The notes under the pieces: model-generated
What the model was told of the DNA's origin: nothing
Seen by the model: the letters and a program-made list of their open reading frames with translations, nothing else
The model's database searches: none
Position numbers and translations under genes: made by a program
NCBI GenBank assembly: GCA_963677925.2
Contig: CAXXYH010000004.1
Coordinates: 800,001-864,000, forward strand
DNA from: Spirochaetia bacterium
GTDB lineage: Bacteria > Spirochaetota > Spirochaetia > UBA9216
Direction of reading: 5' to 3'
Length of the DNA: 64,000 bases
Shown here: one piece after another, positions 21,302 to 37,408 of the stretch
How positions within the stretch are numbered: the stretch's first letter is position 1
How the letters are laid out: each line of letters starts with the position of its first letter

Positions 21302-21331
21302 TTCACAGAAAAGAAAAAATAAAGGTATAAT
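21302..21331 (+). promoter_or_regulatory. Sigma70-type promoter in front of the three-hairpin element and sbcDC
   Basis: TTCACA-N18-TATAAT; predicted start site about 21337. Confidence 0.55.
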
Positions 21332-21336
21332 AATGG

Positions 21337-21485
21337 AACGTCCCGTAAAACCCGGTTGGTTTTACTGGACGTTTTGAAGTAAAATTTTACATAAATATTT
21401 AAATTCCTGATTTATTTCAGCTTGTAAAATTTTCTTCATTTACATTAAGGTTGGAAAATCAAAAATTCCCGATTTTTGATTTTCC
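21337..21485 (+). repeat. Three-hairpin structured element, copy A
   Basis: 16-bp stem (15/16 paired) with loop CGGTT; T; TGAAG...CTTCA hairpin; linker TTTACATTAAGGT; perfect 14-bp stem with 5-nt loop. Confidence 0.8.
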
Positions 21486-21512
21486 CTAATTGAAAAAAAT
21501 CCGGAGCACCTA

Positions 21513-22772
21513 TTGAAGATTTTACATACGTCGGACTGGCATCTCGGTGCCAGGCTTGGAGATTACAGCAGGATAGATGAACAGAAAGAGGTCCTCGAAG
21601 AAATAAGGCATATTGCTGAACAGAATGATGTATCGCTGGTTATTGTTGCCGGTGATCTTTTTGATACCTTTAACCCCCCGGTTGAAGCTGCCGAACTGCT
21701 TTACCGGGAGCTGAAAAAGCTTTCCGATGACGGCAGACGGCCGGTAATTGCTATTGCGGGCAACCATGATTCACCAGACCGTATCGAGGCTCCGGACCCG
21801 CTTGCAGCCGAATGCGGTATATTCTTTGTCGGCTACCCCGAGATGCAGAAAAAAGAGACAGTACTCGAATGCGGTACGCGTATCAGCTTTCCCGATCGCG
21901 GAATCCTTGAAGTGGAAACTGCCGGCGGTGAAAAGGCACGGATCATTACTACAGCCTATGCGAATGAAAACAGGCTTCGAAGATATCTCGGTGCTGAAGA
22001 CCGTGAACAGAAAATTTCAGAGGTTCTCGGACAGCTCTGGAAGGAGCTTGCTGATAAGTACTGTGATGATAAGGCTGTAAATATTCTTGCAGCACATCTG
22101 TTTATGAGTGCAGTCTCGGAGATCGGACCGCTTTTCAGTGAAGAACTGCCGGAGAATCCCGAACCTGAGGGAGAGCGTTCAATCCTTCATCCCGGCGGGC
22201 TTGAAATGATTGACGCCGCTCTGGTGCCTCCGCAGATTCAGTACACAGCTCTCGGGCATCTTCACCGTTTCTCTGAGATTAATACGCCGTCCGGAGCACC
22301 GGCAGTGTATTCAGGCAGTCCGCTTGCTTTCGGACTCAGCGAGGAAAACCAGCAGAAGTATGCTGTCCTTGTAGATGTTATACCCGGTGCAAAGGCCGCA
22401 GTTGAAAAAATCCCTTTGAAATCGGGAAAGCGGATTCTCAGAAAGCGCTTCGCCGGAATAAGCGAGGCCGAGGAGTGGCTGAAGGAAAATCAGGACTGCT
22501 ATGTAGAGCTTATAGTACGCTGCGGTTCATGGATAAGCGCCGATGAGCGGAAGATGCTTTACGGACTGCACCCGGGAATTACTGCCTTGATTCCTGAACT
22601 TGAGAATGATGAAGACGGCGACACTCAGTATTCGGAAAGCCTTCCGGATCTTGGGAAATCTGTACCGGAACTTTTTGCTTCCTACTTTGAAGCGGTGAAG
22701 GGGAGTCCTCCCGACACTGCGCTGATGGCGCTTTTCGGTGAGCTTTCTTCTCTCGGGGAGGATGAGGAATGA
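21513..22772 (+). CDS. sbcD: Nuclease SbcCD subunit D
   Basis: HTSDWHLG, AGDLFD, AGNHDS, ALGHLH, YSGSP. Confidence 0.93.
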   Translation: MKILHTSDWHLGARLGDYSRIDEQKEVLEEIRHIAEQNDVSLVIVAGDLFDTFNPPVEAAELLYRELKKLSDDGRRPVIAIAGNHDSPDRIEAPDPLAAECGIFFVGYPEMQKKETVLECGTRISFPDRGILEVETAGGEKARIITTAYANENRLRRYLGAEDREQKISEVLGQLWKELADKYCDDKAVNILAAHLFMSAVSEIGPLFSEELPENPEPEGERSILHPGGLEMIDAALVPPQIQYTALGHLHRFSEINTPSGAPAVYSGSPLAFGLSEENQQKYAVLVDVIPGAKAAVEKIPLKSGKRILRKRFAGISEAEEWLKENQDCYVELIVRCGSWISADERKMLYGLHPGITALIPELENDEDGDTQYSESLPDLGKSVPELFASYFEAVKGSPPDTALMALFGELSSLGEDEE

Positions 22773-25700
22773 GACCTGAAAAACTTGTCCTTGAGGGTGT
22801 TTACTCCTACCGCAGCCGGACTGAAATCGATTTTACAAGCCTTACCGAGGCTGATCTGTTTGGTATATTCGGAAGTGTCGGCAGCGGAAAGTCGGCTATC
22901 CTTGAGGCGATAACCTTCGTCCTTTATGGAGAGATCTCTCGACTCGACAAGAAAAACCGTTACTACAATATGATGAACCTGCGGGCTGCTGTAATGGTTA
23001 TCGATTTTATTTTCTGTCATGAAGGCCGCCGTTACCGGTTTACATTCAATACTAAAAGGAACAAAAAAGATTTTGAAAAGATAGAAACCCCTGAGCGGGC
23101 GGGTTATAAGGATGACACCGGCGAATGGATTCCGCTTTTTGACAAGGATAATGAGGTTACAGCCGAAGGTATTCTCGGGATGAACTATGACAGCTTCCGA
23201 CGGGCGGTGATTGTTCCGCAGGGGCAGTTTCAGGAGTTCCTTCATCTGGGAAAAAATGAGCGGACCGGTATGCTTAAGGACCTTTTCAGCCTCGGCCGCT
23301 TCGACCTTTTCAGCAGGGCTTCAATACTTGCTTCCCGAACCAGCAAGGAAGCTGCTGGAATTGACGGTGCCCTCAGCGGCCTTGAAGGTGTATCCGAAGA
23401 GGAGCTGGAAAAACAGAAGGAAGAAGCTGCGGAAAACAGCAGAATGCTGGAAAAGGCACAGGTTGACTTTAAAAAAAGCAGTGATGCCTTTGAACGGATG
23501 AAGGGCCTTGCCGAGCGCTTCGCAGAGCTTTCGGGGTACGAGGCACAGAAGAAGGAGCTCGACTCCCGGGCGGCTGATATCGGTGAAGAGAAAAAGCTTG
23601 TTTCGGACTATCAGATCTATGTTGAATACTTTAAATCTGATCTTGAGCGTCTTGCATCTCTTGAAAAGGAGGAGGCTCAATCGGCTGAGCGGCTTTCGGA
23701 AACTGAGAAAGAACTGCAGAAAATATCAGCAGAAAAGCTGGAAGTAGATACAGCCTATGAAAAAGCAAGGGCGCAGTATGAGCAGCTTGATGACAATAAA
23801 AAGAAATCAGAGTGGTTTGTGGGGCTTCTTGAGCTTCAGCGCTTCAATGATGAGCTTGAAAAGCTTGATTCCGGTATATCGGAGGCTGAGAAATTTCCGG
23901 CGGAATCAGCTGCAAAACTGGCTGCTTTTAAGTCTGAACTTGATAATTTAAATCTTGAACTTGAAGATCTTCAGCAGTCCGGTACGGCCGAGCAGATGAG
24001 AGGCCTTGCTGAGTGGTATTCAAAAATGGATGCACTTAAAAGTACTGAAAGGGCTGTGCTTGAAAGACTTTCTGCGGTTGAAAAACGGCTGAAACTGGCG
24101 GAAGCTGAGTTATCCCGGATTCTGTCAGGGGAAGATGCAGTAAACTCAGGCTTTGATTTTTCAGAAGCTTCTTCATCTGATGAGGCGCTGTCTGCTGTCT
24201 CTGATGCAGAGGAGGTTCTATCCAGAGAGGACTTTGAACTGAGAGACAAACAAAAGGATGAGGCGGTCCGGAATGAGATGGCAAGACTCAGTTCATCACT
24301 TCATGATGGTAAACCCTGTCCTCTCTGCGGTTCAACTGAACATCCGGCTCCGGCTGGATTCTCCGAAGATGGCGGGGATAGCCTGACCTGGGCTTCAGAG
24401 GCTCTGAGCCGGCGAAGAGCCGCCCTTGAAAGGCTTAAAACTGAGTTGACCGCCCTGTATGCCACCCTCCGTGCAGCAGCGGCTTCTGCCGCCGAATGCC
24501 GCGGTGAAGCCGCTGCTGCATCGGCAGCTGTTCTTGATTTTAAGGCATCATTCAGTTCCGATAAATTCAGTGCTGCTGATCCTGATGATTTCCGTCAGGA
24601 GTACCGCAGGTTTCTCGATAATCAAAAACGGACCGAAGATATCAGACGTGCACAGTCCGGGATTAATGCTGAGATGGAGAAGCTTCGTTCCGAGGCTGAG
24701 GCCGCCGCCGGAAAACTTGCTGAGCTCAGGAATCGCCGGTCGGCAATGACAGCCCGAATTGAAAGTATTGAAGAAAGAATCGATTCCGATTTCATAGAAC
24801 AGTATTCCGCTTCGGGCCCGGAAGTGCTTCAGAAGCTGCAGAGAGCAAATGATGATAGCATTAAAAATATTTCGGATAATTACAGGCGGCTTTCTGAAAA
24901 ACGTGATTCCATGACTGCCATTGCAGCCGGACTTGAATCTAAAAAGAGAGAGCTGTCGGCCAGACTTGCTGAAACAGAGGCTGCAATATCGGAACTCAGG
25001 AAGAAAATAAATGAAATGCTTGAAGAGAAAAAGGCTGATTCAATTGATGATGTTTCTGCAACTCTCAGTCGAGCTTCTGAGATAGATGCAATAAGAAGCC
25101 GGGTTCGGGACTTTGAACAGGCTCTGCAGGAAGTTTCTGCAAGGATAGAACATCTGAAAGAAATCACAGAGGGCGCAAAATTTGATGAAGATGCTTTTCA
25201 GGCGGAGGGCAGGCGGAATGATGTTCTTAAGCAGGAGGTTCAGAGACTGTCGGGTGAAGCCGGGCGCTATGAGTCCGAGCTTAAAAGAGCCGCTGCCGAC
25301 CTTGAGAAAAAGAATGAGCTTATGAAGCAGAAAAAAGAGCTTGATACACGGACTGAAAATCTGAAATTACTGAAGTTTATGCTTCAGGGAAATAAATTTG
25401 TCGATTTTGTTGCGACGGTCTACCTCAAGGAACTCTGCAATTCTGCAAACAGCCGCTTTCGCATTCTGACCCGAGAATCGCTTCGGATTGAGCTTGATGA
25501 ATCAAATAACTTTATCATACGCGATTATCTTAATGATGGAAAAACAAGATCTGTAAAAACCCTTTCCGGCGGTCAGACTTTTCAGGCGGCTTTTTCTCTT
25601 GCACTCGCTCTTGCCGACAACATGGAGAAGGGTAAGGCTGAGTTCTTCTTTCTTGATGAGGGCTTCGGATCTCTGGACAGGGAGTCACTTGAACTTGTTT

Positions 25701-25849
25701 TTGACAGCCTTAAATCGCTTAAGCATGAAAACAGGACTGTAGGTGTGATTTCACACGTACAGGAGCTTAAGCAGGAAATAGATACATTCATTACAGTAAC
25801 AAAAAACGGAGAAGAAGGCAGTTTCATTGAAAACAGCTGGGATCTCTGA
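22769..25849 (+). CDS. sbcC: Nuclease SbcCD subunit C (SMC-like ATPase)
   Basis: GSVGSGKS, long coiled coils, zinc hook CPLCG, LSGGQ, FLDEGFGSLD. Confidence 0.93.
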   Translation: MRPEKLVLEGVYSYRSRTEIDFTSLTEADLFGIFGSVGSGKSAILEAITFVLYGEISRLDKKNRYYNMMNLRAAVMVIDFIFCHEGRRYRFTFNTKRNKKDFEKIETPERAGYKDDTGEWIPLFDKDNEVTAEGILGMNYDSFRRAVIVPQGQFQEFLHLGKNERTGMLKDLFSLGRFDLFSRASILASRTSKEAAGIDGALSGLEGVSEEELEKQKEEAAENSRMLEKAQVDFKKSSDAFERMKGLAERFAELSGYEAQKKELDSRAADIGEEKKLVSDYQIYVEYFKSDLERLASLEKEEAQSAERLSETEKELQKISAEKLEVDTAYEKARAQYEQLDDNKKKSEWFVGLLELQRFNDELEKLDSGISEAEKFPAESAAKLAAFKSELDNLNLELEDLQQSGTAEQMRGLAEWYSKMDALKSTERAVLERLSAVEKRLKLAEAELSRILSGEDAVNSGFDFSEASSSDEALSAVSDAEEVLSREDFELRDKQKDEAVRNEMARLSSSLHDGKPCPLCGSTEHPAPAGFSEDGGDSLTWASEALSRRRAALERLKTELTALYATLRAAAASAAECRGEAAAASAAVLDFKASFSSDKFSAADPDDFRQEYRRFLDNQKRTEDIRRAQSGINAEMEKLRSEAEAAAGKLAELRNRRSAMTARIESIEERIDSDFIEQYSASGPEVLQKLQRANDDSIKNISDNYRRLSEKRDSMTAIAAGLESKKRELSARLAETEAAISELRKKINEMLEEKKADSIDDVSATLSRASEIDAIRSRVRDFEQALQEVSARIEHLKEITEGAKFDEDAFQAEGRRNDVLKQEVQRLSGEAGRYESELKRAAADLEKKNELMKQKKELDTRTENLKLLKFMLQGNKFVDFVATVYLKELCNSANSRFRILTRESLRIELDESNNFIIRDYLNDGKTRSVKTLSGGQTFQAAFSLALALADNMEKGKAEFFFLDEGFGSLDRESLELVFDSLKSLKHENRTVGVISHVQELKQEIDTFITVTKNGEEGSFIENSWDL

Positions 25850-25862
25850 CATGGAGGATGAA

Positions 25863-26297
25863 ATGCATCAGGACGAAGGACATTACGCCGGAAAACATCC
25901 GGACAAATCAGCCTTGAATGAGCGGATTGCTGAAGTGCTGAAGGCAGAAGCCGAAAATGGACGGTTAAGCTGTACTGCAGCCCACCGGATTGCGTCGGAA
26001 CTGGGTGTGAGCCCTGCTGAAACCGGCAGGAACATGGATCTTCTCGAGATCAGAATTACTGGCTGTCAGCTTGGACTGTTCGGCAAAGATAAGGATGAGG
26101 TTGATAAAACCCTGCCTTCTGAGGATGATGTGGATGTACTCAAAGAAATAATTGAGGAGGACTCACGCAACGGAGGAATAAGCTGCCGTACTCTCTGGAC
26201 GGCTGCCGAAAAAGCCGGTTCTACCAAGGCTCAGGCTGCGGCTGTCTGTGATTTGATGTCTATTAAGATACACAGCTGCCAGCTGGGCGCATTTTAG
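25863..26297 (+). CDS. Hypothetical protein with two tandem C...CQLG-x-F repeats
   Basis: NGRLSC...GCQLGLF and NGGISC...SCQLGAF; GGAGG before ATG 25863. Confidence 0.7.
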   Translation: MHQDEGHYAGKHPDKSALNERIAEVLKAEAENGRLSCTAAHRIASELGVSPAETGRNMDLLEIRITGCQLGLFGKDKDEVDKTLPSEDDVDVLKEIIEEDSRNGGISCRTLWTAAEKAGSTKAQAAAVCDLMSIKIHSCQLGAF

Positions 26298-26304
26298 AAT
26301 ATCA

Positions 26305-26345
26305 GGGGGCAGCTTTTTTGCGGCTGCCTCCCTCCCTATCTTTTT
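26305..26345. terminator. Terminator between convergent genes
   Basis: GGGGGCAGC/GCTGCCTCC stem. Confidence 0.5.
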
Positions 26346-27279
26346 AAGCCTTATTTTTAAAGTTCGTAAGGCTGTAGGCAAAATCCTTGAATATAGCCCT
26401 GTCAAGTTTTCCCTGATCAACATCCTTCTTTATCAGCTCAAGCGCGTTAAGCGGGCTAAGCGCTGTCCTGTAAGGCCTGTCGTCATTGGTAATAGCTTCA
26501 TAACAATCGATAATAGCCAGAACCCTTCCCATATATGAGATGTCAGTTTTCCCTTCAGGATATCCGGAGCCGTCCAGCTTTTCATGGTGCTCCTTGCTGG
26601 CAAGTGCAATCTCGGAGAAATCCTCATCGGAATAAAGCTGAAGGATCTCAAAGCCGAGGGTCGTATGGGATTTGATCTTGTCAAATTCTTCATCAGTGAG
26701 TCTTCGGCTGGCCTTGAGGATGTAATTCGGAACCTCAGTCTTTCCAACATCATGAAGCAGGGCTGCCAGGCCGAGTTTTTTGGTTTCCTCTTCTGTAAGC
26801 GAAATGTAGTAACAGTATCCCACTGTCAGCGCCATAACATTGACTGAATGCAGAGCGGTTGTGTAGTCGTTGAAGGACATTCTTGCGAAATTCTTGAGGA
26901 CATTGGGCTGTAATGAAAAACCATCGATAAGATGGTTAACCGTATTCGGAGCCCGTTTAAGACCTCCGGCCCTTGGGGCTGCCAGTGTTTCCTCTACAAG
27001 ATCAACAAGGGAATCCTTTACTGTTGTGATGTCTTTGGTTGTTTCAAGTTTCTTTTGAAATCCGCGCTGAGCTGCTTCAATACTTTCCAGTCTGTTGTCG
27101 GGGTGTATGAAGAACTCGTCGATTGCGTATTTTCTTTCCAGGCTTTCGTGGGTAAACGACATTCCTGCCGGCTTGTACAATGTTATGTTTCCGCTTGGTG
27201 TTCGGTAATACAGCGGAATATCATCATAGTAGAGCAGATGACTTTTGCGGGCCGGTATCCATTTTTTTGGTGCAGACAT
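26344..27279 (-). CDS. HD-GYP domain phosphodiesterase
   Basis: HSVNV, LLHDVGK, HHEKLDGSGYP, DRPYR. Confidence 0.9.
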   Translation of the reverse strand: MSAPKKWIPARKSHLLYYDDIPLYYRTPSGNITLYKPAGMSFTHESLERKYAIDEFFIHPDNRLESIEAAQRGFQKKLETTKDITTVKDSLVDLVEETLAAPRAGGLKRAPNTVNHLIDGFSLQPNVLKNFARMSFNDYTTALHSVNVMALTVGYCYYISLTEEETKKLGLAALLHDVGKTEVPNYILKASRRLTDEEFDKIKSHTTLGFEILQLYSDEDFSEIALASKEHHEKLDGSGYPEGKTDISYMGRVLAIIDCYEAITNDDRPYRTALSPLNALELIKKDVDQGKLDRAIFKDFAYSLTNFKNKA

Positions 27280-27375
27280 GATCAGCTATCTCCAGATTGA
27301 CAGATTAGGTCGTAATTATATTCCTGATAATTTCGAAATTCAATCTTTTTACTTTTTTTTAACACTATTGTGGTA

Positions 27376-28614
27376 TCAGTATACCGGAAACAAATTGAAG
27401 AAACCATCCCCTATGCTGCCCGGGATCAGATTGGATAGATGGCCGCTTGTCCTTCCGCATTTGCTGTACAGCAGGGCGGACATGTTTTCGGTTGAATTGA
27501 TAAAAGAATCAGGATAGTTCCTTTCAAAAGTTTCGACAAAACCGGCTTCATAGGGTCTGGCTGATGTCATTCGTACATAGAGAAAGGTTTTAAAATAGTC
27601 GTTGATATCCTCAAAGGGCTGCTGCAGTATGTAAGCCATAAACTCGTTTACCAGCAGGTAGTCATTGCTCACGTCGTATCCCCGGTAATCGAGAAGCTTT
27701 TTCCAGAAGGTGATTTCATCCGGATGCATGCTGAAGAAAATCCTCTCTGACTGTGCTCTGAAATCAGGATCGGAAAAGAAGATTCCGTGCAGACATTCAT
27801 GGGTTAAAAAGCGGTAGCGCCAGTCCGGGAGTGATTCTCTTGAAACAGACAGCACAGCACCCTTTCCTCCGCTGTATTTTTCATTCTGCACGTTCAGTAT
27901 GCCTTCTGAGACAAGCAGGTCGCGGAGGTATATCTCTTCGCTGTTAAGTACTTCCGGTGTTTCCATAGCCATGTTGAAAAAATCAGCCAGATCCTCGGGG
28001 CGGTAATCATGTGCATTCCAGCCGTGACGGCCTTCGAGCCCCTCGTTTGAGACAATGGTTCCAACGAAACCCGGCTTTTCCACGAAGAAGGCCAGACGCT
28101 TAAAGAGCCTTGCCTGTGCTTCATAGTTCCAGGTATCAAAAATCAGTATGTCAGGGTAAAGGTTCCAGCGGTACACCTCCCAGTCATGTCCGCCGCGCGG
28201 AGCAAAATCCGAGAAAATTATATGTCCTATATCGGCATCCAGCGGTGTTTCACTGTCAATATCGAATACCTCTGATGAGATTAGATCAAACTCTGATTCT
28301 GTACTCTGTATCTCAACTCTATCAGGGAAAAACCCTAGCAGAGAAGGGTATAGAGAAATTTTTACCGGCCTGCTGCCTGAGGAAAAAGATGCGGTATATG
28401 ACTGAGTCTCCGAGAATGCTTTCAGCTCCCCTGTACCGTTTAATAAAAGATTCAGCCCCTTATTATTATCGTCGCCGGTAGAGACTATTACCCGGGTAAG
28501 ATCCCTGTTTTTGATTATTAGGGTTCCGGAATTACCGGCTGCGGATACTGAAGCAGAGCAAGTAAGCAGTAAGACTAAACTGAAAAAAAATGCAGACAAT
28601 CTCGGCGCATTCAT
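27376..28614 (-). CDS. Secreted hypothetical protein with HExxH motif
   Basis: Signal peptide; FLTHECLHG and downstream NEFMAY. Confidence 0.65.
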   Translation of the reverse strand: MNAPRLSAFFFSLVLLLTCSASVSAAGNSGTLIIKNRDLTRVIVSTGDDNNKGLNLLLNGTGELKAFSETQSYTASFSSGSRPVKISLYPSLLGFFPDRVEIQSTESEFDLISSEVFDIDSETPLDADIGHIIFSDFAPRGGHDWEVYRWNLYPDILIFDTWNYEAQARLFKRLAFFVEKPGFVGTIVSNEGLEGRHGWNAHDYRPEDLADFFNMAMETPEVLNSEEIYLRDLLVSEGILNVQNEKYSGGKGAVLSVSRESLPDWRYRFLTHECLHGIFFSDPDFRAQSERIFFSMHPDEITFWKKLLDYRGYDVSNDYLLVNEFMAYILQQPFEDINDYFKTFLYVRMTSARPYEAGFVETFERNYPDSFINSTENMSALLYSKCGRTSGHLSNLIPGSIGDGFFNLFPVY

Positions 28615-28684
28615 ATAATCTGTATATTATCATTTATTGCGATCAGATAACAGTGTATATATACTTTAAACGGAGGGTTTAAAA

Positions 28685-29041
28685 ATGGATATCAAAATGA
28701 AGAAATATCTCGATATACTCAAAATCGAGCTGGAAGATCTGATATATGACATCGAATTCAATGAAGAAAATATGAAACGCCGGTTTGATGAACACGAAAT
28801 AACCGAATATGTTTTTCTTGAGAATACCAGCCTTCTGAAAAGGGAAGTTCTCGGAATTGAGAATGTTACTAAAGCTGTGGAAAAAGCCAAGGCTGAAAGT
28901 GAAAATGTTTCAGAGCTCAGGGCATACATCGAGAACTACTTTATTAATGAAATGAAAGCTGCCGGACTCCCCGGTGCTGTCAGACTTCTTGTCGAGCGCA
29001 AGCTTGAAAAGATTGCGACCTATATGGAGCTTGAAGACTGA
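28685..29041 (+). CDS. Hypothetical protein
   Basis: 118-aa ORF with GGAGG RBS, directly upstream of cysQ. Confidence 0.7.
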   Translation: MDIKMKKYLDILKIELEDLIYDIEFNEENMKRRFDEHEITEYVFLENTSLLKREVLGIENVTKAVEKAKAESENVSELRAYIENYFINEMKAAGLPGAVRLLVERKLEKIATYMELED

Positions 29042-29054
29042 TATTTCTTAATTC

Positions 29055-29858
29055 ATGGAAGAATTAAACATTATTTTCGACAGTCTTGTTTCAATTTGCG
29101 CTCATGCAGGTGAACTTATTCTTGATGTTTACAGCAGAGAATTCCCTGTTGAGATGAAAGAGGATAATTCACCGCTTACCCAGGCCGACCGTGCTTCTCA
29201 TGAATACATCTGCAGCAAACTTGAAACGATAAAAGTGGACGGCAGAATTATCCCGCTCATTTCCGAAGAGGGCGAGATTGCCCCCCATGAGAAGAGGCGC
29301 AATTGGGATTATTACTGGCTGATAGACCCGCTGGACGGTACAAAAGAATTTGTAAAAAAGAACGGTGAGTTTACAGTCAATATAGCCCTGATGAAGAACA
29401 GCCGGCCTTATGCCGGAATAGTCTATGTTCCGGTTACCGGAGCTGTTTATTACGGCTCTGAACCGACCGGCAGTTTCCGGGCTGCGGTTAAAGACGGAAA
29501 ATCAGTGAATGCGATCCAGCTGCCGGATGAATCAATTAACCGGCGTGATGATGTTCTTGTCGCAGCAGGCAGCCGTTCCCACCGCAGTGAAGATTTTGAT
29601 AAGTTTGTCAATGAGTGGGCATCTGATAAGGGCTATAGTTCGGTTGAAGTCATTACCGCCGGAAGCAGTCTCAAGTTCTGCATGATCGCAGAAGGCGCCG
29701 CCGATATCTATCCGCGCTTCAGCCCGACTATGGAGTGGGATACAGCCGCCGCTCATGCTGTGGTAGAAGGTGCCGGACGCAGCTGTACCAGCCTTGACGG
29801 AAGCGAATTTCCTTATAACAAGCAGTCTCTTAAAAACGGCGGCTTTCTGGTGTTCTGA
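29055..29858 (+). CDS. cysQ: 3'(2'),5'-bisphosphate nucleotidase
   Basis: SPLTQAD, ISEE, WLIDPLDGTKEF, GSSLKFC, MEWDTAAAHA. Confidence 0.93.
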   Translation: MEELNIIFDSLVSICAHAGELILDVYSREFPVEMKEDNSPLTQADRASHEYICSKLETIKVDGRIIPLISEEGEIAPHEKRRNWDYYWLIDPLDGTKEFVKKNGEFTVNIALMKNSRPYAGIVYVPVTGAVYYGSEPTGSFRAAVKDGKSVNAIQLPDESINRRDDVLVAAGSRSHRSEDFDKFVNEWASDKGYSSVEVITAGSSLKFCMIAEGAADIYPRFSPTMEWDTAAAHAVVEGAGRSCTSLDGSEFPYNKQSLKNGGFLVF

Positions 29859-29871
29859 GCCGCCGCTTAGT

Positions 29872-31641
29872 CTACAGGCAGATGGTAAACGTTGATCCCT
29901 TTCCCGGAGTGCTCTCAACCGAGATGCTTCCGTTGTGGCTCAGGGCAATATGCTTGACTATCGACAGCCCCAGGCCTGTACCGCCTGATTCCCTGCTGCG
30001 CGCCTTGTCTACGCGGTAGAATCTTTCAAAAATACGATCCTGATCCTCCTGCGATATTCCGCAGCCCTGGTCCTTTACGCTGATGCAGGTTCTGCCCTCA
30101 TCGTTCTGTTTTACTGAAACCTTTATTTCAGTATCAGCCCCGCTGTATTTGATTCCGTTGTCTATCAGATTTATTACAGCCTGTTCGGCAAGCAGGGGGT
30201 GAACCTTCAGGATGATATCCTCGGGGCAGTTCATTTTAAGTTTTATGTTTTTATCTTCCGCCCTGGGTTCGCAGCTTGTTACAGCGCTTGTGAGCAGGTC
30301 TATCGCCGGAATCTCTTCAAACAGCGGAGCATTTCCGTCGTTCTTTTCTATTCCTGAAAGCAGAAGCAGATCGTCGATAATAGCCTCGATTCTGGAAGAG
30401 TGCTTCTCCATGATTCCAAGGAACTTGATTGTATTGTTTTCGCCTTCCTCCGGGGACATGCTGTCCAGCAGGGTTTCAATATATCCCTTAATCATAGTGA
30501 CCGGTGTTTTCAGTTCATGTGATACATTGGCTACAAAATCTTTGCGCATCTGTTCCAGCTGCTTCATTCGGGTTATGTCGTGCATTACAAGCAGAAGGGC
30601 GCTTACCTCCCCCTCGGCATCCTTAACCACGGTACCGTGAATTTCAAGGTGGGCGGGGCGGGGAAGATCCAGGGTAATAATTTCAGTCTTCGATGTCCCT
30701 GCCTCAACCATGCTCTGTGCAAAATTGTTCAGCTCCGAGTTTCTGAAAAGTTCAAGGATGCTCCTTCCCCTGTCGTCCTCTTCGTTGAAATGAAACAGTG
30801 TTTCCGCGGCCGAATTGATCCGCAGTATGTGCAGCCGTCTGTCGGTGAAGAGAACCGGCTCGGTCATGTTGTTCAGAATGAGCTGAAGCTCGTTTTTCTG
30901 TGTTTCAACCTTGTTTATACGATCCTGCAGCTGCATCCCCATTGAGTTTATGTCGTCCGAGAGTTCGGAAATTTCCTGAGGGCGCTCAATGAAAAGCTTT
31001 TTGGAAAAATCTCCGGCCGCATACATTGCCGCAGTCTGCTTGAGTTCGTTAATTATCCGGCTTACCCAGCCGGCAAGGATGTAGCTTAGCACCCCGACTG
31101 CAATAAAAAGAACGATGCTCAGTATTACTACACTCCGGTTTATGAGTGATAATCTTGAATCGATATCTTCAAGTGAACGTGCAAGCCTTATTGCGCCGTT
31201 GGTCGAATCACTGAATTGTATGGGGACGGCCGAATACATCATCTCAAAAGACATGGTCGCGCTGTTGCGGGTTGATGAGCCGTAGTTTCCGGAGAGGGCG
31301 GCAGAGACCTCCGGCCGGTCTGCGTGGTTGTTCATGCTGTCAGGGTCGTTCTGGGAATCCGCCAGCACGAGTCCGTTTTCGTTTATGATGGTAACCCTCA
31401 TGTCGGTTTCATTGGATGCCGTGTAAGCAAATTTTTCGATTCCCGCTATGTCGGTTGATGCAAGTCCTGCAGGAAAAACATTTTTAAGAAGTATACAGCT
31501 TTCCTTCAGGTATTCCTCGGTTTCACTGTAGTAGAAGGTTTTAAAGTTATAGGTGTTAAAGACGGCAATAGGTACTATAGCGATGAGCATCATCAGCATC
31601 AGTACAAGAAAGCTCTGCCGGAAAAGTGGGCGCTTTTTCAT
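29872..31641 (-). CDS. phoR: Phosphate regulon sensor kinase
   Basis: TM-periplasmic-TM-HAMP-PAS architecture, FVANVSHELKTP, FYRVDKARSRESGGTGLGL; pst context. Confidence 0.88.
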   Translation of the reverse strand: MKKRPLFRQSFLVLMLMMLIAIVPIAVFNTYNFKTFYYSETEEYLKESCILLKNVFPAGLASTDIAGIEKFAYTASNETDMRVTIINENGLVLADSQNDPDSMNNHADRPEVSAALSGNYGSSTRNSATMSFEMMYSAVPIQFSDSTNGAIRLARSLEDIDSRLSLINRSVVILSIVLFIAVGVLSYILAGWVSRIINELKQTAAMYAAGDFSKKLFIERPQEISELSDDINSMGMQLQDRINKVETQKNELQLILNNMTEPVLFTDRRLHILRINSAAETLFHFNEEDDRGRSILELFRNSELNNFAQSMVEAGTSKTEIITLDLPRPAHLEIHGTVVKDAEGEVSALLLVMHDITRMKQLEQMRKDFVANVSHELKTPVTMIKGYIETLLDSMSPEEGENNTIKFLGIMEKHSSRIEAIIDDLLLLSGIEKNDGNAPLFEEIPAIDLLTSAVTSCEPRAEDKNIKLKMNCPEDIILKVHPLLAEQAVINLIDNGIKYSGADTEIKVSVKQNDEGRTCISVKDQGCGISQEDQDRIFERFYRVDKARSRESGGTGLGLSIVKHIALSHNGSISVESTPGKGSTFTICL

Positions 31642-31667
31642 TCGTTTCCTTTTTGTAAGAAAAATTT

Positions 31668-31812
31668 AGAATAATAAAAGTTAGCGACTTTTATTATTCT
31701 TACCTTGGATGTAAATGAAGATTTTTCACAAGTTCACTCAAGCATTTATATATACTGAACACCGAAAATCTTCAAAGCCAAATTTAAAACCAACTGCGTT
31801 TTAAATTTGGAT
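31668..31812 (-). repeat. Three-hairpin structured element, copy B (between phoB and phoR)
   Basis: Minus strand: 16-bp stem (14/16 paired) with loop CAGTT; T; TGAAG...CTTCA (59 nt); linker TTTACATCCAAGGT; perfect 14-bp stem with 5-nt loop. Confidence 0.8.
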
Positions 31813-32501
31813 CAGTCACTTTTTAGACGGTACCCGACTCCGCGTACGGTTTCAATATATCTGCCCTGAGATCCGAGCTTTTTCCTGATACCAAGTATCT
31901 GTACATCCACTGAACGTTCGGTAACAGGGTAGTTCTGTCCGCGTACTGCATCGATTATCTGGTTCCTTGAAAATACCCATCCCGGATTGGATGCGAGGTG
32001 ACTGAGGATTGCAAACTCTGTTGCCGAAAGATTCACATCTTCTTCGCTGCTGAGTACTTCGTGCTTTTTTATGTCGATCTGTATTTCATGAACGCGAATC
32101 AGCTGGTTTCCGTCATCTTCCCCGTCGGTGTTCCGCCGGAGCACTGTTCTTATGCGGGCAAGAAGCACCCGCGGGCTGAATGGTTTTGTTATGTAGTCGT
32201 CAGCCCCAAGTTCTAGGCCGGATATGATATCCGAATCCTCAGATTTTGCAGTCAGCATGATAACGGGAATATCAGAAGTTGTCTCATCGCGTTTGAGTTT
32301 TTTGCAGATTTCAAGACCGTCCACGTCAGGCAGCATTATATCAAGCAGTACGAGATCGGGCGCATGCTTTCTTGCATTCTCAAGCCCTTCGATTCCGGTT
32401 GCTGCTTTAAGAATTTTATAACCTTCATTTTCAAGGTTGAAGGCTATCAGCTCTCTAATGTCCTGTTCATCTTCGACTACAAGTATTTTTTCACCGGGCA
32501 T
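31812..32501 (-). CDS. phoB: Phosphate regulon response regulator (OmpR family)
   Basis: Receiver LLDIMLP, GADDYITKPFS, winged helix IETVRGVGY. Confidence 0.88.
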   Translation of the reverse strand: MPGEKILVVEDEQDIRELIAFNLENEGYKILKAATGIEGLENARKHAPDLVLLDIMLPDVDGLEICKKLKRDETTSDIPVIMLTAKSEDSDIISGLELGADDYITKPFSPRVLLARIRTVLRRNTDGEDDGNQLIRVHEIQIDIKKHEVLSSEEDVNLSATEFAILSHLASNPGWVFSRNQIIDAVRGQNYPVTERSVDVQILGIRKKLGSQGRYIETVRGVGYRLKSD

Positions 32502-32513
32502 TTCAACCTCCTG

Positions 32514-33173
32514 CTATAATTCCACATGCTGGCCGGTTTTTGTATAAACCACCCATTCGCAGATATTGGTAACATGATCACCAAGCCGTTCAAGGAATCT
32601 GGCCAGGAAGATGAGGTTTGTGGCCTGTTCAATGTTGGCTTCATCTTCTTTATTCATATATTTAAGCATCTTTTTCAGAAGCTTCTTGTGGTTTTTATCA
32701 AGGGCATCATCCCGTGCTGCAACATCTCTTGCAAGCTCCTCATCCATATTTACAAAGGCGGTAAGCGCATCCCTGAGCATTCCGCGTGCAGTTTCTCCTG
32801 CCTCGGGAATCTGCTGGATGGGGGCAATATAGTCTTCTTTTGAGAGCCGCTTTGCGCCCTTTGCTATATGAACTGCATAGTCGCCTGCCCGTTCAAGATC
32901 GGTAATTATTTTTATGGCGCCGGTGAGATGTCTCAGGTCGGTTGCTACTGGCTGTTCGGTTGCAAGTATTATTGACACCCTGTCGAAGAGGGCTGTTTCC
33001 ATGATGTTGATTTTATCGTCTTCGTTTATCACCTGTTCGGCCAGGGCTTCATCCTGGTTTTTCAGAGCCTCTATAGATTTCTTCAATGCTTCTTCAACAT
33101 ATGTACCCATCAGAAGAATCTGATCGTTTAGGTTTGTCATTTCATTTGAAAAATGTAATCTCGGTTTACTCAT
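32514..33173 (-). CDS. phoU: Phosphate signalling protein PhoU
   Basis: QPVATDLR, DLERAGDY, LERLGDHVTNICE. Confidence 0.93.
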   Translation of the reverse strand: MSKPRLHFSNEMTNLNDQILLMGTYVEEALKKSIEALKNQDEALAEQVINEDDKINIMETALFDRVSIILATEQPVATDLRHLTGAIKIITDLERAGDYAVHIAKGAKRLSKEDYIAPIQQIPEAGETARGMLRDALTAFVNMDEELARDVAARDDALDKNHKKLLKKMLKYMNKEDEANIEQATNLIFLARFLERLGDHVTNICEWVVYTKTGQHVEL

Positions 33174-33188
33174 TTTTTACTCCGGATA

Positions 33189-33959
33189 TCAGCCGAATCG
33201 GCCTGATATATAGTCTTCTGTTTTTTTGCTTTCAGGATTGAAGAAGATTCGCTCTGTCGGTCCCATTTCTTCAAGGTATCCATGCAGGAAGAATGCTGTG
33301 TAGTCTGAAATTCTTCCCGCCTGCTGCATGTTGTGAGTGACTATAACGATGGTATAGTCCTGCTTGAGTTCATCTACAAGGTCTTCAATTCTCGATGTTG
33401 ATATCGGATCGAGTGCACTTGTAGGCTCATCCATCAGAATAACATCAGGTTCAACAGCAAGAACCCTTGCTATACAGAGCCTCTGCTGCTGGCCGCCGGA
33501 AAGTCCAAGTGCCGGCTTGTTCAGCCTGTCTTTAACCTCATCCCATATTGCAGCCTGTGTAAGGCTTTTCTCAACTATTTCATCAAGAACCTTGCGGTTT
33601 TTTATTCCGTGAATCCTGGGCCCGTAGGCTATGTTGTCAAATATCGACATCGCAAAGGGGTTGGGGCTCTGAAACACCATTCCAATCTTCTTTCTAAGCT
33701 GAATTATATCATACTTTCCATAGATATCTTCGCCGTCATAAAGAATAGTGCCGTCAACCTTTGACCCGACAACAAGGTCGTTCATCCTGTTCAAGGTTTT
33801 TAAAAAGGTTGACTTTCCGCATCCCGAAGGGCCTATCAGGGCCGTCACCTTATTCTGCTCTATCTCCATTGAAATGCCGTGCAGCGCCTTGAAGTCTCCG
33901 TAAAAGAAGTCGAGGTCCATAACGGACAGTTTATTATTATCAGTCATTGTGTTCTCCAT
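33189..33959 (-). CDS. pstB: Phosphate ABC transporter ATPase
   Basis: [41 protein letters not shown]. Confidence 0.95.
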
Positions 33960-33962
33960 AAA

Positions 33963-35612
33963 TCAGTATTTCCTTCTGACAAGTCTCGTAGAAAGAACGT
34001 TAACAATAAGAATTATCACTATAAGTATTGTGGCTGTTGCGAATGCCCGGTCAAAGGAAATACCTTCCTTAACTAGCTGGTATAAGTGGGTCGAGAGGAC
34101 ACGTGCTGATGTTGAAAGGTTCTCGGCCCTCCGGTAGTCAAAGCCCATTGTGAAAAGCAGCGCCGCTGTCTCTCCGACCGCACGTCCTATTGCAAGGATT
34201 ACGCCGGTGAGTATGCCGGGAGCTGCCGCGGGTATTACAACCTTGTATATTGTCTGCCACTTGCCGGCACCAAGCGCAAGGCTTCCGGCCCTGAACGACT
34301 GCGGAACACCCTTTATTGCCTCTTCCGCTGTTCTGATGATTGTCGGCAGAATCATAAGAGTCAGAGTCAGCGTTCCTGAAAGCAGCCCTATTCCCAAGTG
34401 CATGTATCCTACAAAGACTATGAAGCCGAAAAGACCGAAGATAATTGACGGAATACCTGCCAGAGTCTCTGTTCCGAGTCTCAGTATTTTTATCAGTATT
34501 CCCTGCTTTGCATACTCGGTAAGGTAAACCGCTGCTCCTATGCCTATCGGCGTTGAGAAAAGAACTGTAAGGAGAACCATGTAAATTGTGTTAACTACAA
34601 TCGAGGAAATACCGCCGACACGGCCTGCTCTCTTGGGTTCTTCAAAGAGAAACCACCACTGCAGGTTCATACCGGTTTTCCGGTACTGGTAATTCAGAAT
34701 ATCCAGTTTGAGCTCATCCGCTGTTTCGGTGAAAACCAGTCCGACTGCACCGCTTGTGCTGTTGAGTTTTTCAATATAGTCGGCATCCGAAGTGCTTTTT
34801 ACTGCATTTGCAGGAAGTGACTCCGCCGTAAGGCCTGTAAGCCTTAGATATTCATCGTATTCCTTACTGCCGGCCGGAGGGATTATTGGTGTCACCGCCA
34901 GGTCTATGCCGCCTGCGTCCTGCCAGTTTGTGATCTTGCCGCTGAAAAGAGCCTTGAGTCCGTCTTCATCGGTGAACCTTATCTTTATATTATTCTGAAT
35001 CTCAAGGACCGAGCTGTTAACAGCAATTGAGAAGGGAATAACCGGAAGGATTCTCACATCAGATAAATCCGCTTTATCGGCTTCGTCCGCGGAAATTATT
35101 CCAAATCCTCCCCGCTGGGATGCTACTGCACTGATTATGTCGGAAGCTGATCGCATGAAGGTCGCATTTTTTCCGGTTTTGCCTTCAGCACCATCAGGAA
35201 TATAGGGAAAAACATCAAGGTCCTGTTCATTTATATTTCCCCAGTTTGACGGCTTTCCGCCGATAAGTCCGCTTAAATCAGAGAAGCTTATCTCTTTTAT
35301 CCTGACATCCCTGTTGACTATTACAACCGAATCGCCTTCAAGCCAGGGGAGTGGTGTTTCTGTTGTCTTGATATATACATGGTCCTGTTCGAGGATGTTG
35401 TCTGAACGGAACCCGCGGTAGAGAATGAAACCGAGAATATAGACCAGTATTCCGAAGGTTGCTATTGCGGCTGCCCAGAGAAGTCCTGTTGCCAGGTTGT
35501 TCATTCGGTTGGTTTTTATATAGTTAGTTTCCGCCTTCTTTTTCTCGCGTTTCAGAAGATCGTTTAAGACATTTCCGGAATCTACCGGTTCCGCCTGAAA
35601 AGTTACATTCAT
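33963..35612 (-). CDS. pstA: Phosphate ABC permease PstA with large periplasmic PstS-like insertion
   Basis: C-terminal LAGIPSIIFGLFG, GRAVGETAAL; insert contains FSGKITNWQDAGG. Confidence 0.88.
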   Translation of the reverse strand: MNVTFQAEPVDSGNVLNDLLKREKKKAETNYIKTNRMNNLATGLLWAAAIATFGILVYILGFILYRGFRSDNILEQDHVYIKTTETPLPWLEGDSVVIVNRDVRIKEISFSDLSGLIGGKPSNWGNINEQDLDVFPYIPDGAEGKTGKNATFMRSASDIISAVASQRGGFGIISADEADKADLSDVRILPVIPFSIAVNSSVLEIQNNIKIRFTDEDGLKALFSGKITNWQDAGGIDLAVTPIIPPAGSKEYDEYLRLTGLTAESLPANAVKSTSDADYIEKLNSTSGAVGLVFTETADELKLDILNYQYRKTGMNLQWWFLFEEPKRAGRVGGISSIVVNTIYMVLLTVLFSTPIGIGAAVYLTEYAKQGILIKILRLGTETLAGIPSIIFGLFGFIVFVGYMHLGIGLLSGTLTLTLMILPTIIRTAEEAIKGVPQSFRAGSLALGAGKWQTIYKVVIPAAAPGILTGVILAIGRAVGETAALLFTMGFDYRRAENLSTSARVLSTHLYQLVKEGISFDRAFATATILIVIILIVNVLSTRLVRRKY

Positions 35613-36523
35613 TATACAGCCTCCGCCTTGCCCTTCAGGAGGTTGACCAGAAGGTTCAGTATCAGGATGAAGAGGAAAAGTACGATACTCGTTGTGAAAA
35701 GTGCGGTCATATGATCTCCGGATGCGTATCCCATGTCGGTTACAATGTTCATTGTGAGTGTTCGAACCTTTGACAGCGGTCCCTGAGGCATAATCGGAGC
35801 GTTACCTGCTACCATCAGAACCGCCATTGTCTCTCCAAGAGCACGTCCCATACCCAGTACAATACCGGCAATTATTCCTGATTTAGCGGCTGGAATCTGG
35901 ACTCTCAGAATAGTCTGCCATCTCGTTCCTCCCAGAGCCAGTGAACCTTCCTTGATGTTCCGGGGCAGGGAAGTTATCGAAACCTCGGTGATGTTGATGA
36001 TTGTGGGAAGCACCATGATTGCAAGGATGATGGATCCCGAAAGCATGCTGTAGCCGGTACCCCCGAAGGTTTCACGTATAAACTTTGAAATCACTATAAC
36101 GCCGAAAAATCCATAGATAACCGACGGTATGCCTGCCAGCAGCTGAACAACGCTTCTCATGAAGTCTGCTACCCTTGTGCCTGCAATCTCGGCCATAAAT
36201 ACGGCAGTAAGTATCCCGATAGGCACTGCCAGAACCAGTGAACCCAGGGTTACGTATATCGATCCGACAATAAAAGGAAGTATTCCGTACGAAGGATTTG
36301 TATCGTTCGAAGGCGACCAGTCGGTTCCGAGCAGAAACTCAAAGACGCCGACAGACTTGAACAGCGGAAGACCTCTCTGAAAGATGAAAAACGATATGAA
36401 CAATACGCTTACAACCGAAACAAGCGCACATACAAGAAGAATCATCTCAACACTTCTTTCCTGTGCGGCTCTGCGGCTGATATCTTTAAGCATCTTTCTC
36501 TGGTTATCAGAGTTTTGTTTCAA
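35612..36523 (-). CDS. pstC: Phosphate ABC permease PstC
   Basis: LAGIPSVIYGFFG, GRALGETMAVLMVAGN; TTG start with AGGAG RBS. Confidence 0.92.
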   Translation of the reverse strand: MKQNSDNQRKMLKDISRRAAQERSVEMILLVCALVSVVSVLFISFFIFQRGLPLFKSVGVFEFLLGTDWSPSNDTNPSYGILPFIVGSIYVTLGSLVLAVPIGILTAVFMAEIAGTRVADFMRSVVQLLAGIPSVIYGFFGVIVISKFIRETFGGTGYSMLSGSIILAIMVLPTIINITEVSITSLPRNIKEGSLALGGTRWQTILRVQIPAAKSGIIAGIVLGMGRALGETMAVLMVAGNAPIMPQGPLSKVRTLTMNIVTDMGYASGDHMTALFTTSIVLFLFILILNLLVNLLKGKAEAV

Positions 36524-36577
36524 AATATATCTCCTAATTGTTTGCAGGTATAAACTATTAGCAGAGCGTTCTTGAAT

Positions 36578-36604
36578 TGTTAGAAGTTTGTTAGGATTGT
36601 GTTA
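36578..36604 (-). promoter_or_regulatory. Pho box: three direct repeats at 11-bp period
   Basis: Minus strand TAACA-caatcc-TAACA-aacttc-TAACA upstream of pstC. Confidence 0.75.
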
Positions 36605-36744
36605 AAAAGCAAAGCTCGGTTAGCTTTGCTTTTTAACTTGAAGTATTTTTTGTTAAATCAGACAGATGAAGTGAGATAAAACCATAAAAATACTTCATAT
36701 AAATCTACGGTGTAAAAACAAAAGGCTGAAGCTTTTGTTTTAAG
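36601..36744 (+). repeat. Three-hairpin structured element, copy C
   Basis: Perfect 16-bp stem with loop CGGTT; T; TGAAG...CTTCA (59 nt); linker TATAAATCTACGGT; imperfect 14-5-14 hairpin. Confidence 0.78.
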
Positions 36745-36783
36745 TTCGTTGGCATTTTGTGACATACGAAAACATATTAACTC

Positions 36784-36812
36784 TTGACGTTAATAATGTT
36801 AGGCGTTATTAT
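36784..36812 (+). promoter_or_regulatory. higBA promoter with overlapping inverted repeat (candidate HigA operator)
   Basis: TTGACG-N17-TATTAT; TAATAATG-ttagg-CGTTATTA dyad spans the spacer and -10. Confidence 0.7.
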
Positions 36813-36819
36813 TCTATTA

Positions 36820-37101
36820 GTGATTGAATCATTTAAAAACAAAGAAACCAGAAAAATCTGGGAAGAAATTTACTCAAAACGATTTCCTAAAGATATTCAG
36901 AGAATAGGTTTGAGAAAGCTTATCATGATTCATCGAGCGAAAGATGTAATTGATTTAAGAGTTCCTCCGGGAAATCATTTAGAACAATTAACTGGAAATA
37001 GGAAGGGCCAATATAGCATAAGAATAAATAATCAATGGAGAATATGCTTTCATTGGAGTAGCGGTTCTGCAAGTGATGTAGAAATAACAGATTATCATTA
37101 G
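36820..37101 (+). CDS. higB: HigB (RelE/ParE superfamily) toxin
   Basis: MIESFKNKETRKIW...DLRVPPGNHLEQLTGNRKGQYSIRINNQWRICF...DYH; GTG start. Confidence 0.92.
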   Translation: MIESFKNKETRKIWEEIYSKRFPKDIQRIGLRKLIMIHRAKDVIDLRVPPGNHLEQLTGNRKGQYSIRINNQWRICFHWSSGSASDVEITDYH

Positions 37102-37102
37102 T

Positions 37103-37408
37103 ATGGGTGAAGATATGGAAAGAATACCTGCAATAACGCCTGGAGAGATTTTATTAGAAGAATTTCTCATTCCCTTGAATATTTCAGCTTATCGATTGGC
37201 TAAAGACACCAATGTACCAGCCACAAGGGTTTCCCAGATAATAAAGGGAAATAGAAAGATAACAGCAGATACAGCTTTGAGATTTTCGAAATATTTTGGA
37301 AATTCTGCAGATTTTTGGTTAGGGATTCAAGATGAATATGATTTAAGAAAAGAAAGAGAAAAAATCGCTTACGAATTAGAAAGAATACCTCAAATAAAAG
37401 CCTCTTAG
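37103..37408 (+). CDS. higA: HigA antitoxin (HTH)
   Basis: PGEILLEEFL...ITADTALRFSKYFGNSADFWLGIQ. Confidence 0.92.
   Translation: MGEDMERIPAITPGEILLEEFLIPLNISAYRLAKDTNVPATRVSQIIKGNRKITADTALRFSKYFGNSADFWLGIQDEYDLRKEREKIAYELERIPQIKAS

Follow-up and report, generated by a model that had tools for sequence, protein, structure and literature searches.

The 64,000-nt stretch of DNA analysed here (the window: positions 800,001 to 864,000 of contig CAXXYH010000004.1 from a Spirochaetia bacterium) contains three copies of a short intergenic element that folds, on one strand, into three consecutive hairpins. The element is best understood as a non-autonomous DNA transposon of ~153 bp, a so-called MITE (miniature inverted-repeat transposable element), which would have been mobilised by a DDE transposase acting in trans and encoded by an insertion sequence with the same ends. 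We put the probability of this interpretation at about 0.87. The element combines small size and absence of coding content with terminal inverted repeats, a target duplication of fixed length, empty sites in a related genome, and an autonomous element that carries the same ends. It belongs to a family that is real, multi-copy, and taxonomically confined. An earlier, sequence-only reading had described the three copies as an uncharacterised dispersed family and had proposed that they are either a structured RNA or a single-stranded DNA site recognised by shape; the description survives, and both proposals about the nature of the element fail.

All three window copies lie in intergenic gaps and fold as single strands in one common order: hairpin 1, whose 5-nt loop reads C(G/A)GTT, a single T, a TGAAG...CTTCA hairpin (hairpin 2; 64, 59, and 59 nt in copies 1, 2, and 3), an unpaired linker of 14-17 nt, and hairpin 3. 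Copy 1 occupies 21337..21487 on the plus strand (covariance-model match of 153.9 bits; the full element extends one base further on each side). Its parts, assigned by folding and, for hairpin 1 and the linker, also by consensus, are hairpin 1 (21337..21373; the outer transposon end, a CGGTT loop, and an inverted copy of the end), the central hairpin 2 (21375..21438), the linker (21439..21452; a TTTACAT...AAGGT motif), and hairpin 3 (21453..21485; an inverted copy, a loop, and the outer right transposon end). Copy 2 lies on the minus strand at 31666..31812 (115.5 bits), in the gap between minus-strand open reading frames (ORFs) of 229 and 589 aa that had been taken for phoB and phoR, and folds into hairpin 1 (31812-31776), hairpin 2 (31774-31716), the linker (31715-31701), and hairpin 3 (31700-31668). 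Copy 3, on the plus strand at 36601..36746 (117.9 bits), is located between divergent genes just upstream of a HigB-like toxin/helix-turn-helix (HTH) antitoxin pair, with hairpin 1 at 36601-36637, hairpin 2 at 36639-36697, the linker at 36698-36714, and hairpin 3 at 36715-36741, again by folding. The positions and three-hairpin layout originally reported were thus reproduced, with fold z scores of -9.5, -7.3, and -7.6 for copies 1-3; none of 200 dinucleotide shuffles was equally stable.

A strict motif, TGAAG-N45-62-CTTCAT[AT]TA[AC]AT, occurs exactly six times in the 5.04-Mb genome of the window (G000), and all six occurrences are elements of the same architecture. The covariance model, trained on these six copies, recovered 13 full-length copies in G000 at E<1e-7 together with weaker partial matches. 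The sequence-only reading had suggested that many further copies exist across the genome, and this was borne out. Copies range from 126 to 176 nt in length and have no coding capacity. Model matches were found in nine of ten other genomes of the same Spirochaetia family, with a maximum of 41 per genome (41 in G008, 35 in G006, and 18 in the congeneric sister species, G001), and in only four of 50 genomes that belong to the class but to other families; a pattern scan placed the relatives within Spirochaetia. In Rfam there was no match in the window at the gathering score, and around three other copies (L001-L003) only chance-level matches at E up to 10. No published description of the family was found in the literature searched, which did not cover the catalogue of the census in PMC11602168. 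Flank and consensus statistics given below refer to 82 distinct copies from seven genomes, and pairing and covariation values to 83 aligned copies (82 distinct).

The ends of the element were defined by extending each model match by one base per side. Of the bases so added, the one at the 5' side is G in 65 and the one at the 3' side C in 53 of the 82 copies, which gives ends of the form 5'-GAG...CTC-3'. The terminal inverted repeats are ~16 nt long with the motif GAGSNNNTTKCAAAAS, and the consensus right end, reverse-complemented, is identical to the left end at 14 of 17 positions. In G000 the end motif occurs 13 times in forward and 13 times in reverse orientation, compared to 0 and 1 occurrences of a backwards-read control. 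Immediately outside these ends, a perfect 4-bp target-site duplication is present in 34 of the 82 copies, and 15 more show a duplication with one mismatch; when right flanks were permuted 2000 times, perfect 4-bp matches averaged 1.3 and never exceeded 8. Other combinations of offset and length yielded 0-5 of 82, except for a 5-bp reading that includes the terminal C (17 of 82). The duplicated 4-mers are AT-rich and have no fixed sequence. At window copies 1 and 3 the flanking 4-mers (AATG/ATTG and ATTG/GTTG, respectively) agree at three of four positions.

A comparison of orthologous loci in G000 and G001 for presence or absence of the element, an approach already indicated by the sequence-only reading, provided five clean empty sites. 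Two G000 insertions (C4:2228067 and C4:1331158) are absent from G001, and three G001 insertions (L033, L046, and L097) are absent from G000. At all five empty sites the flanks abut, and the bases duplicated at the filled site are common to both sides; a sixth presence/absence case between the two genomes (L126) is imprecise. Because of the target duplications and the empty sites, the element is a sequence that spread by insertion.

The candidate partner is an insertion sequence of 1.2-1.58 kb encoding a 390-400-aa protein with DUF772 and DDE_Tnp_1 domains. The first example, an element of ~1.45 kb in G023, was found by scanning loci with other DDE_Tnp_1 matches for the end motif, which is exact at one end and has one mismatch at the other; its 390-aa protein matches PF01609 (DDE_Tnp_1) with 56.1 bits and PF05598 (DUF772) with 33.9 bits. 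A protein search across 301 genomes of the class, G000 included, returned 21 genomes at E<=1e-20, and the complete genome G209 carries six intact copies. In each of the eight partner copies scanned for the motif (three in G209 and those in G023, G213, G177, G161, and G141), at least one end, and in some both, shows the end motif as an exact 16-mer. Where both junctions could be read (seven copies), three perfect 4-bp duplications (GCTA, AACA, and TAGA) were present, two matched at three of four positions, and two were unmatched. The MITE and the insertion sequence have only their ends in common, as exact matches of 14-17 nt, and the partner ends vary between copies while matching within a copy. 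We infer that this transposase probably moved the MITE; the link is drawn because the ends and the duplication length are identical, and not because the two elements co-occur. A relic in G001, consisting of a pseudogenised transposase homolog beside a single end repeat, adds to this picture. In the G000 lineage the MITE would be an orphan, the mobilising element having decayed there. The MITE and the insertion sequence would form a pair not described before, here in free-living Spirochaetia, and this pair can be used to mark recent changes that separate the genomes of sister species.

A simple model would then involve cut-or-copy-and-paste transposition of the ~153-bp element by a DDE transposase acting in trans, with each insertion duplicating 4 bp of AT-rich target. 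A terminal repeat, a 5-nt loop, and the repeat's own inverted copy would make up one outer hairpin, and two such units would flank a 75-nt core. Both ends would have to fit the same transposase, so that variants could differ from each other while their arms stay complementary. Following loss of the transposase in G000, the orphan copies would decay by substitution and internal deletion.

The stems that differ between copies and nevertheless pair, a central observation of the sequence-only reading, are accounted for by this anatomy. Hairpin 1 consists of the left end repeat, a 5-nt loop, and an inverted copy, and hairpin 3 repeats this arrangement in mirror image on the right. Each outer hairpin therefore joins a left to a right end, back to back, and amounts to a transposon reduced to its ends, the smallest that is possible, of 39 bp; two of these 39-bp units flank the conserved 75-nt core formed by hairpin 2 and the linker. 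Differing stems still pair because their arms are the left and right ends of one variant, both of which fit the same transposase. The base that follows the inner tip of hairpin 1 is T in 64 and C in 16 of 82 copies, which indicates that the terminal base of the outer end is missing from most of the inner copies. Solo hairpin-1 units also occur, including one at C4:1613072 that, by our reading, has ATAT on both flanks. At least seven chimeric solos in G000 consist of the left arm of hairpin 1, a loop, and the right arm of hairpin 3, the product expected if the DNA between the tops of the two hairpins were deleted. The conserved geometry and the variable, paired stems of the original description both hold; the assertion that the stems are unrelated to each other does not, as a clear stem consensus emerges over the 82 copies and the upper stem, AAAAC/GTTTT, is almost invariant.

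Across the aligned copies, 93.9% of stem cells are standard pairs, compared to 69.4% in shuffles, and at 44 of 46 stem pairs both partners have changed. In an alignment fitted to the model, a procedure that favours structure, covariation scores 0.562; shuffles score 0.146, none of 500 reaching 0.562, and slid controls score 0.07-0.14. Covariation this strong and predicted folds this stable would be expected of a structured RNA family (small RNAs or cis-regulatory leaders, for instance) in which selection for RNA folding maintains the hairpins. The mismatches argue otherwise: among 3673 stem cells, G:T/T:G mismatches (68) are no more frequent than A:C/C:A mismatches (70), and thus there is no wobble bias. 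The covariation is real and is best explained by the pairing of the left and right ends of a transposon rather than by RNA. It is important to note that convincing covariation, unmatched by 500 shuffles, can arise from the symmetry of transposon ends and need not reflect an RNA or a DNA shape code, which calls for caution in screens for structured RNAs in AT-rich genomes.

Gene context bears on the same question. The three window copies do point in the direction of their downstream genes, as had been noted, and a promoter-like sequence (TTCACA, 18-nt spacer, TATAAT) lies ~6 nt before copy 1. As a family trait, co-orientation is absent. Among 57 copies with flanks of at least 900 bp, 16 lie between divergent genes, 14 between convergent genes, 11 in co-oriented tandem, and 14 in opposed tandem arrangements, with two undetermined (genes were called crudely, as the longest open frame with 100 codons or more that lies within 450 bp). 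Of the 55 copies that could be classified, only 27 point the same way as the downstream gene, so that orientation relative to neighbouring genes is random and the agreement in the window is due to chance. Promoter and terminator scans revealed no site common to the three window copies and no terminator-like site. Over the 82 copies, promoter-like sites were found in 38 on the forward and 18 on the reverse strand, compared to 27.8 in shuffles, a weak forward excess. Together with the missing Rfam match, and with target duplications and empty sites that identify insertion as the mode of spread, these results make an RNA family very unlikely. The site upstream of copy 1 (window positions 21302-21331) is in itself a strong sigma-70-like sequence, matching at 11 of 12 positions; if it is used, copy 1 would form the 5' leader of the downstream 419-aa ORF, annotated as sbcD in the sequence-only reading.

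Variable stems with conserved loop and foot motifs, and the dispersal of solo hairpin units, could also be expected of single-stranded DNA that is recognised by shape, as in REP/BIME elements acted on by RAYT/HUH Y1 enzymes, a palindrome derived from IS200/IS605, or an attC-like site. Several results speak against this. The Y1 transposase profile PF01797 had no match in G000, with control genomes positive, and the TnpB profile PF07282 gave only a sub-threshold match there. The foot of the hairpins is GAG/CTC with no GTAG tag, and copies are dispersed rather than arranged in cassette arrays. Although 11 of the 13 G000 copies lie on the contig plus strand, seven are co-oriented with and six opposed to the leading strand, as inferred from GC skew, and there is accordingly no replication-strand bias. 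Moreover, the copies carry 4-bp target duplications, which REP, IS200, and attC systems do not make, and a DDE insertion sequence with identical ends exists. A shape-recognised site of this kind is extremely unlikely. Of the linked HUH/Y1 or recombinase gene envisaged in the sequence-only reading, the Y1 part finds no counterpart in G000, and the association with a mobile-element enzyme is retained in the form of the DDE transposase in other genomes. The cumulative GC skew itself switches near 380 kb of contig C4, probably at the replication origin; contig C3 has negative skew throughout, and C3 and most of C4 resemble two replichores.

Several results weigh against the MITE interpretation. 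No recognisable target duplication is present in 33 of the 82 copies, and the observed duplications, AT-rich as they are, lack YTAR, the target of classical IS5. The transposase scores below all NCBIfam cut-offs (91.9 against 270 bits for IS1182, and 81.8 against 140 bits for IS5 [IS5_4]); it appears to be closest to the IS1182 and IS5 models while lying outside any named family, and would thus represent an unassigned branch. Protein and profile searches found no transposase of the partner kind in G000 or in the copy-rich G008, and G006 has only a transposase fragment. Conversely, none of five partner-bearing genomes tested contains a three-hairpin MITE. The MITE and an intact partner were seen together in only one genome, G023, which has one insertion sequence and one weak MITE match. 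The interpretation does not account for the conservation of hairpin 2 and of the linker motif across the family. Finally, hairpin 1 changes faster than the flanks between orthologous copies, contrary to what is expected if a defunct transposon simply decays neutrally.

This last point was pursued in the orthologous copies. The three window copies and four others are found at orthologous sites in G000 and G001, and the window copies are old because their orthologs occupy the same sites in G001 (L054 for copy 1; L077:5470-5617 for copy 2; L077:556-684, strongly diverged, for copy 3). In copy 2, hairpins 1 and 3 are identical to those of the G001 ortholog except for one loop base, the linker is identical, and the interior of hairpin 2 has drifted. 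Six of the seven ortholog pairs were scored, comprising 276 stem pairs, of which 196 are unchanged and 14 gapped. Changes on both sides maintain Watson-Crick pairing in 32 cases and lose the pair in 5; one-sided changes break the pair in 24 cases and leave it paired in 5. Hairpin 1 by itself shows 23 double changes in 96 pairs, compared to a flank identity of ~87-97% at these sites. The stem changes are too fast and too coordinated for independent substitutions.

In the G001 ortholog of copy 1, hairpin 1 is 0.89 identical to that of another G001 copy (L097), and the G000 ortholog is not among the two best matches listed for it (0.89 and 0.81); hairpins 2 and 3 of the same copy are 0.94 and 0.97 identical to G000 copy 1. 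These discordant matches, between sequences that are short, suggest that whole hairpins are exchanged between copies. Such a replacement could come about if copies convert one another or if the 39-bp unit itself turns over. A search of G000 for donors of the unusual stems of the window copies returned one partial match only, at C4:1082394-1082421. Internal deletion in place is apparent from a comparison with L128 (G001:C1:164031), a full element; at the corresponding G000 site (C4:159780-159870) all that is left is hairpin 1 with the beginning of hairpin 2, and the final arm of hairpin 3, a copy shortened where it stood. Module exchange, and the manner in which the composite arose, are matters that we infer.

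Two extensions of the MITE interpretation would address the paired stems of these old copies. In the first, which we regard as unlikely, the element is a miniature composite of two 39-bp ends-only units that are still exchangeable modules, through gene conversion or unit-level transposition, so that palindromes are kept alive long after loss of the transposase; some copies may then have been adopted as regulatory or structural DNA. In the second, which is less likely still, the element is a MITE by origin whose surviving copies now serve the host as structural modules at the DNA or RNA level, perhaps by stabilising mRNA, donating promoters, or acting as bidirectional attenuators. Such a takeover, if true, would explain perfect hairpins in old orphan copies and is in keeping with the seven orthologous copies whose hairpins still pair, with the retention of hairpins 1 and 3 and the linker in copy 2 while the interior of hairpin 2 drifts, and with the weak excess of forward promoter-like sites. 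It is at odds with the absence of an orientation preference, with in-place internal deletions (the G000 counterpart of L128 and the chimeric solo units), and with discordant best matches of the modules, which point to copy-to-copy exchange rather than selection. Irrespective of adoption, a palindrome inserted upstream of sbcD, within the pho operon, or next to higBA may alter expression, and these intergenic sites are flagged accordingly.

Bacterial MITEs are likewise small, non-coding, and intergenic, with terminal inverted repeats, short duplications, and tens of copies; they show insertion polymorphism between relatives and depend on a transposase supplied in trans. Examples are the Correia elements of Neisseria, RUP/BOX of pneumococci, and ERIC. 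In contrast to the usual MITEs, each end here is a complete, perfect hairpin, formed by the end repeat and its inverted copy, around a conserved hairpin core, and the duplication is 4 bp, whereas Correia and IS630-type MITEs duplicate TA. The partner, in turn, resembles the IS5/IS1182 group, with which it shares the DUF772 and DDE_Tnp_1 domains and to which its best NCBIfam matches belong. Its GAG-type ends and 4-bp duplications recall the GA/GAG ends and 4-bp duplications that are typical of an IS5 subgroup in ISfinder summaries. It differs from that group in scores far below the curated cut-offs and in that the MITE has no more than the 14-17-nt ends in common with it. Integron attC sites are of similar size and conserve structure over sequence, but an attC site is one long imperfect hairpin with extrahelical bases, whereas the present element has three separate perfect hairpins, is dispersed as single copies, and carries 4-bp duplications (an integron integrase was not searched for). 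Elements derived from IS200/IS605 have subterminal hairpins and neither end repeats nor duplications; here both are present, and no TnpA or TnpB was found above cut-off in G000. REP/BIME elements with their RAYT are, according to PMC3733652, also short palindromic units that stand alone or are linked into composite intergenic mosaics; unlike them, the element has no GTAG/CGTC tag, G000 has no Y1 transposase, and target duplications are present. According to the MITE census in PMC11602168, genomes of Spirochaetes (Leptospira, Sediminispirochaeta, and Treponema) are rich in MITEs, with a mean of 145.4 per genome.

Other candidate partners were rejected. The DDE_Tnp_1 insertion sequences of G001 (IS5 family, NF033581) and of G007 have different ends, and the end motif also differs in their relatives on metagenome contigs; rve-type transposase loci in five genomes have no matching ends. 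Profile searches with DDE_Tnp_1 gave no match in G000, PF13586 had no match in five genomes, and PF13359 matched only the IS5 copies of G001. Among scanned G000 repeats of at least 500 bp and at least 85% identity, which did not include the C3/C4 repeat L173, no multi-copy insertion sequence was found; the repeats of at least 500 bp with ORFs that were scanned are all paralogous metabolic genes, and three repeat copies of ~6 kb are taken to be rRNA operons, judging from their size and number alone. G000 looks almost free of insertion sequences. The only rve-type match in this genome is a sub-threshold 138-aa frame at C4:871143-871412, ~7 kb past the end of the window. The IS5-family insertion sequence of G001 (NF033581, 278.8 bits; L102:1014-2222 and L105, on contig C1) has ends of the type ...CCTCTAAAAAC, unlike those of the MITE. 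By our reading, CCTCTAAAAAC-type ends match 14 of 16 positions of the ends of a lone MITE-like copy in the distant G043 (L040), which has TATA on both flanks.

Toxin-antitoxin genes, identified by Pfam, recur near the element. In the window, the HigB-like/HTH pair (36784-37408) starts 38 bp after copy 3; a second hairpin unit was looked for downstream of this pair, and none was found. At L114:807-1683 (G008:C261), two inverted solo hairpin units separated by 878 bp enclose a HicA/HicB pair, and at L115:862-2656 (G006:C17) a HigB_toxin/HTH pair is enclosed by two partial elements at a distance of 1.8 kb. These arrangements may represent miniature composite transposons that carry toxin-antitoxin cassettes, or may be coincidence.

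In a length variant of 164-166 nt, the loop region of hairpin 3 is enlarged by a 14-nt segment. It is represented by L007:1501-1665 in G000 (C3:1513045), by L071, L085, L088, L067, L140, L143, L145, L149, and L150 in G008, and by L116 in G007. In the G008 copies the extra segment folds into a small additional hairpin, and it may be either a nested insertion or the marker of a subfamily.

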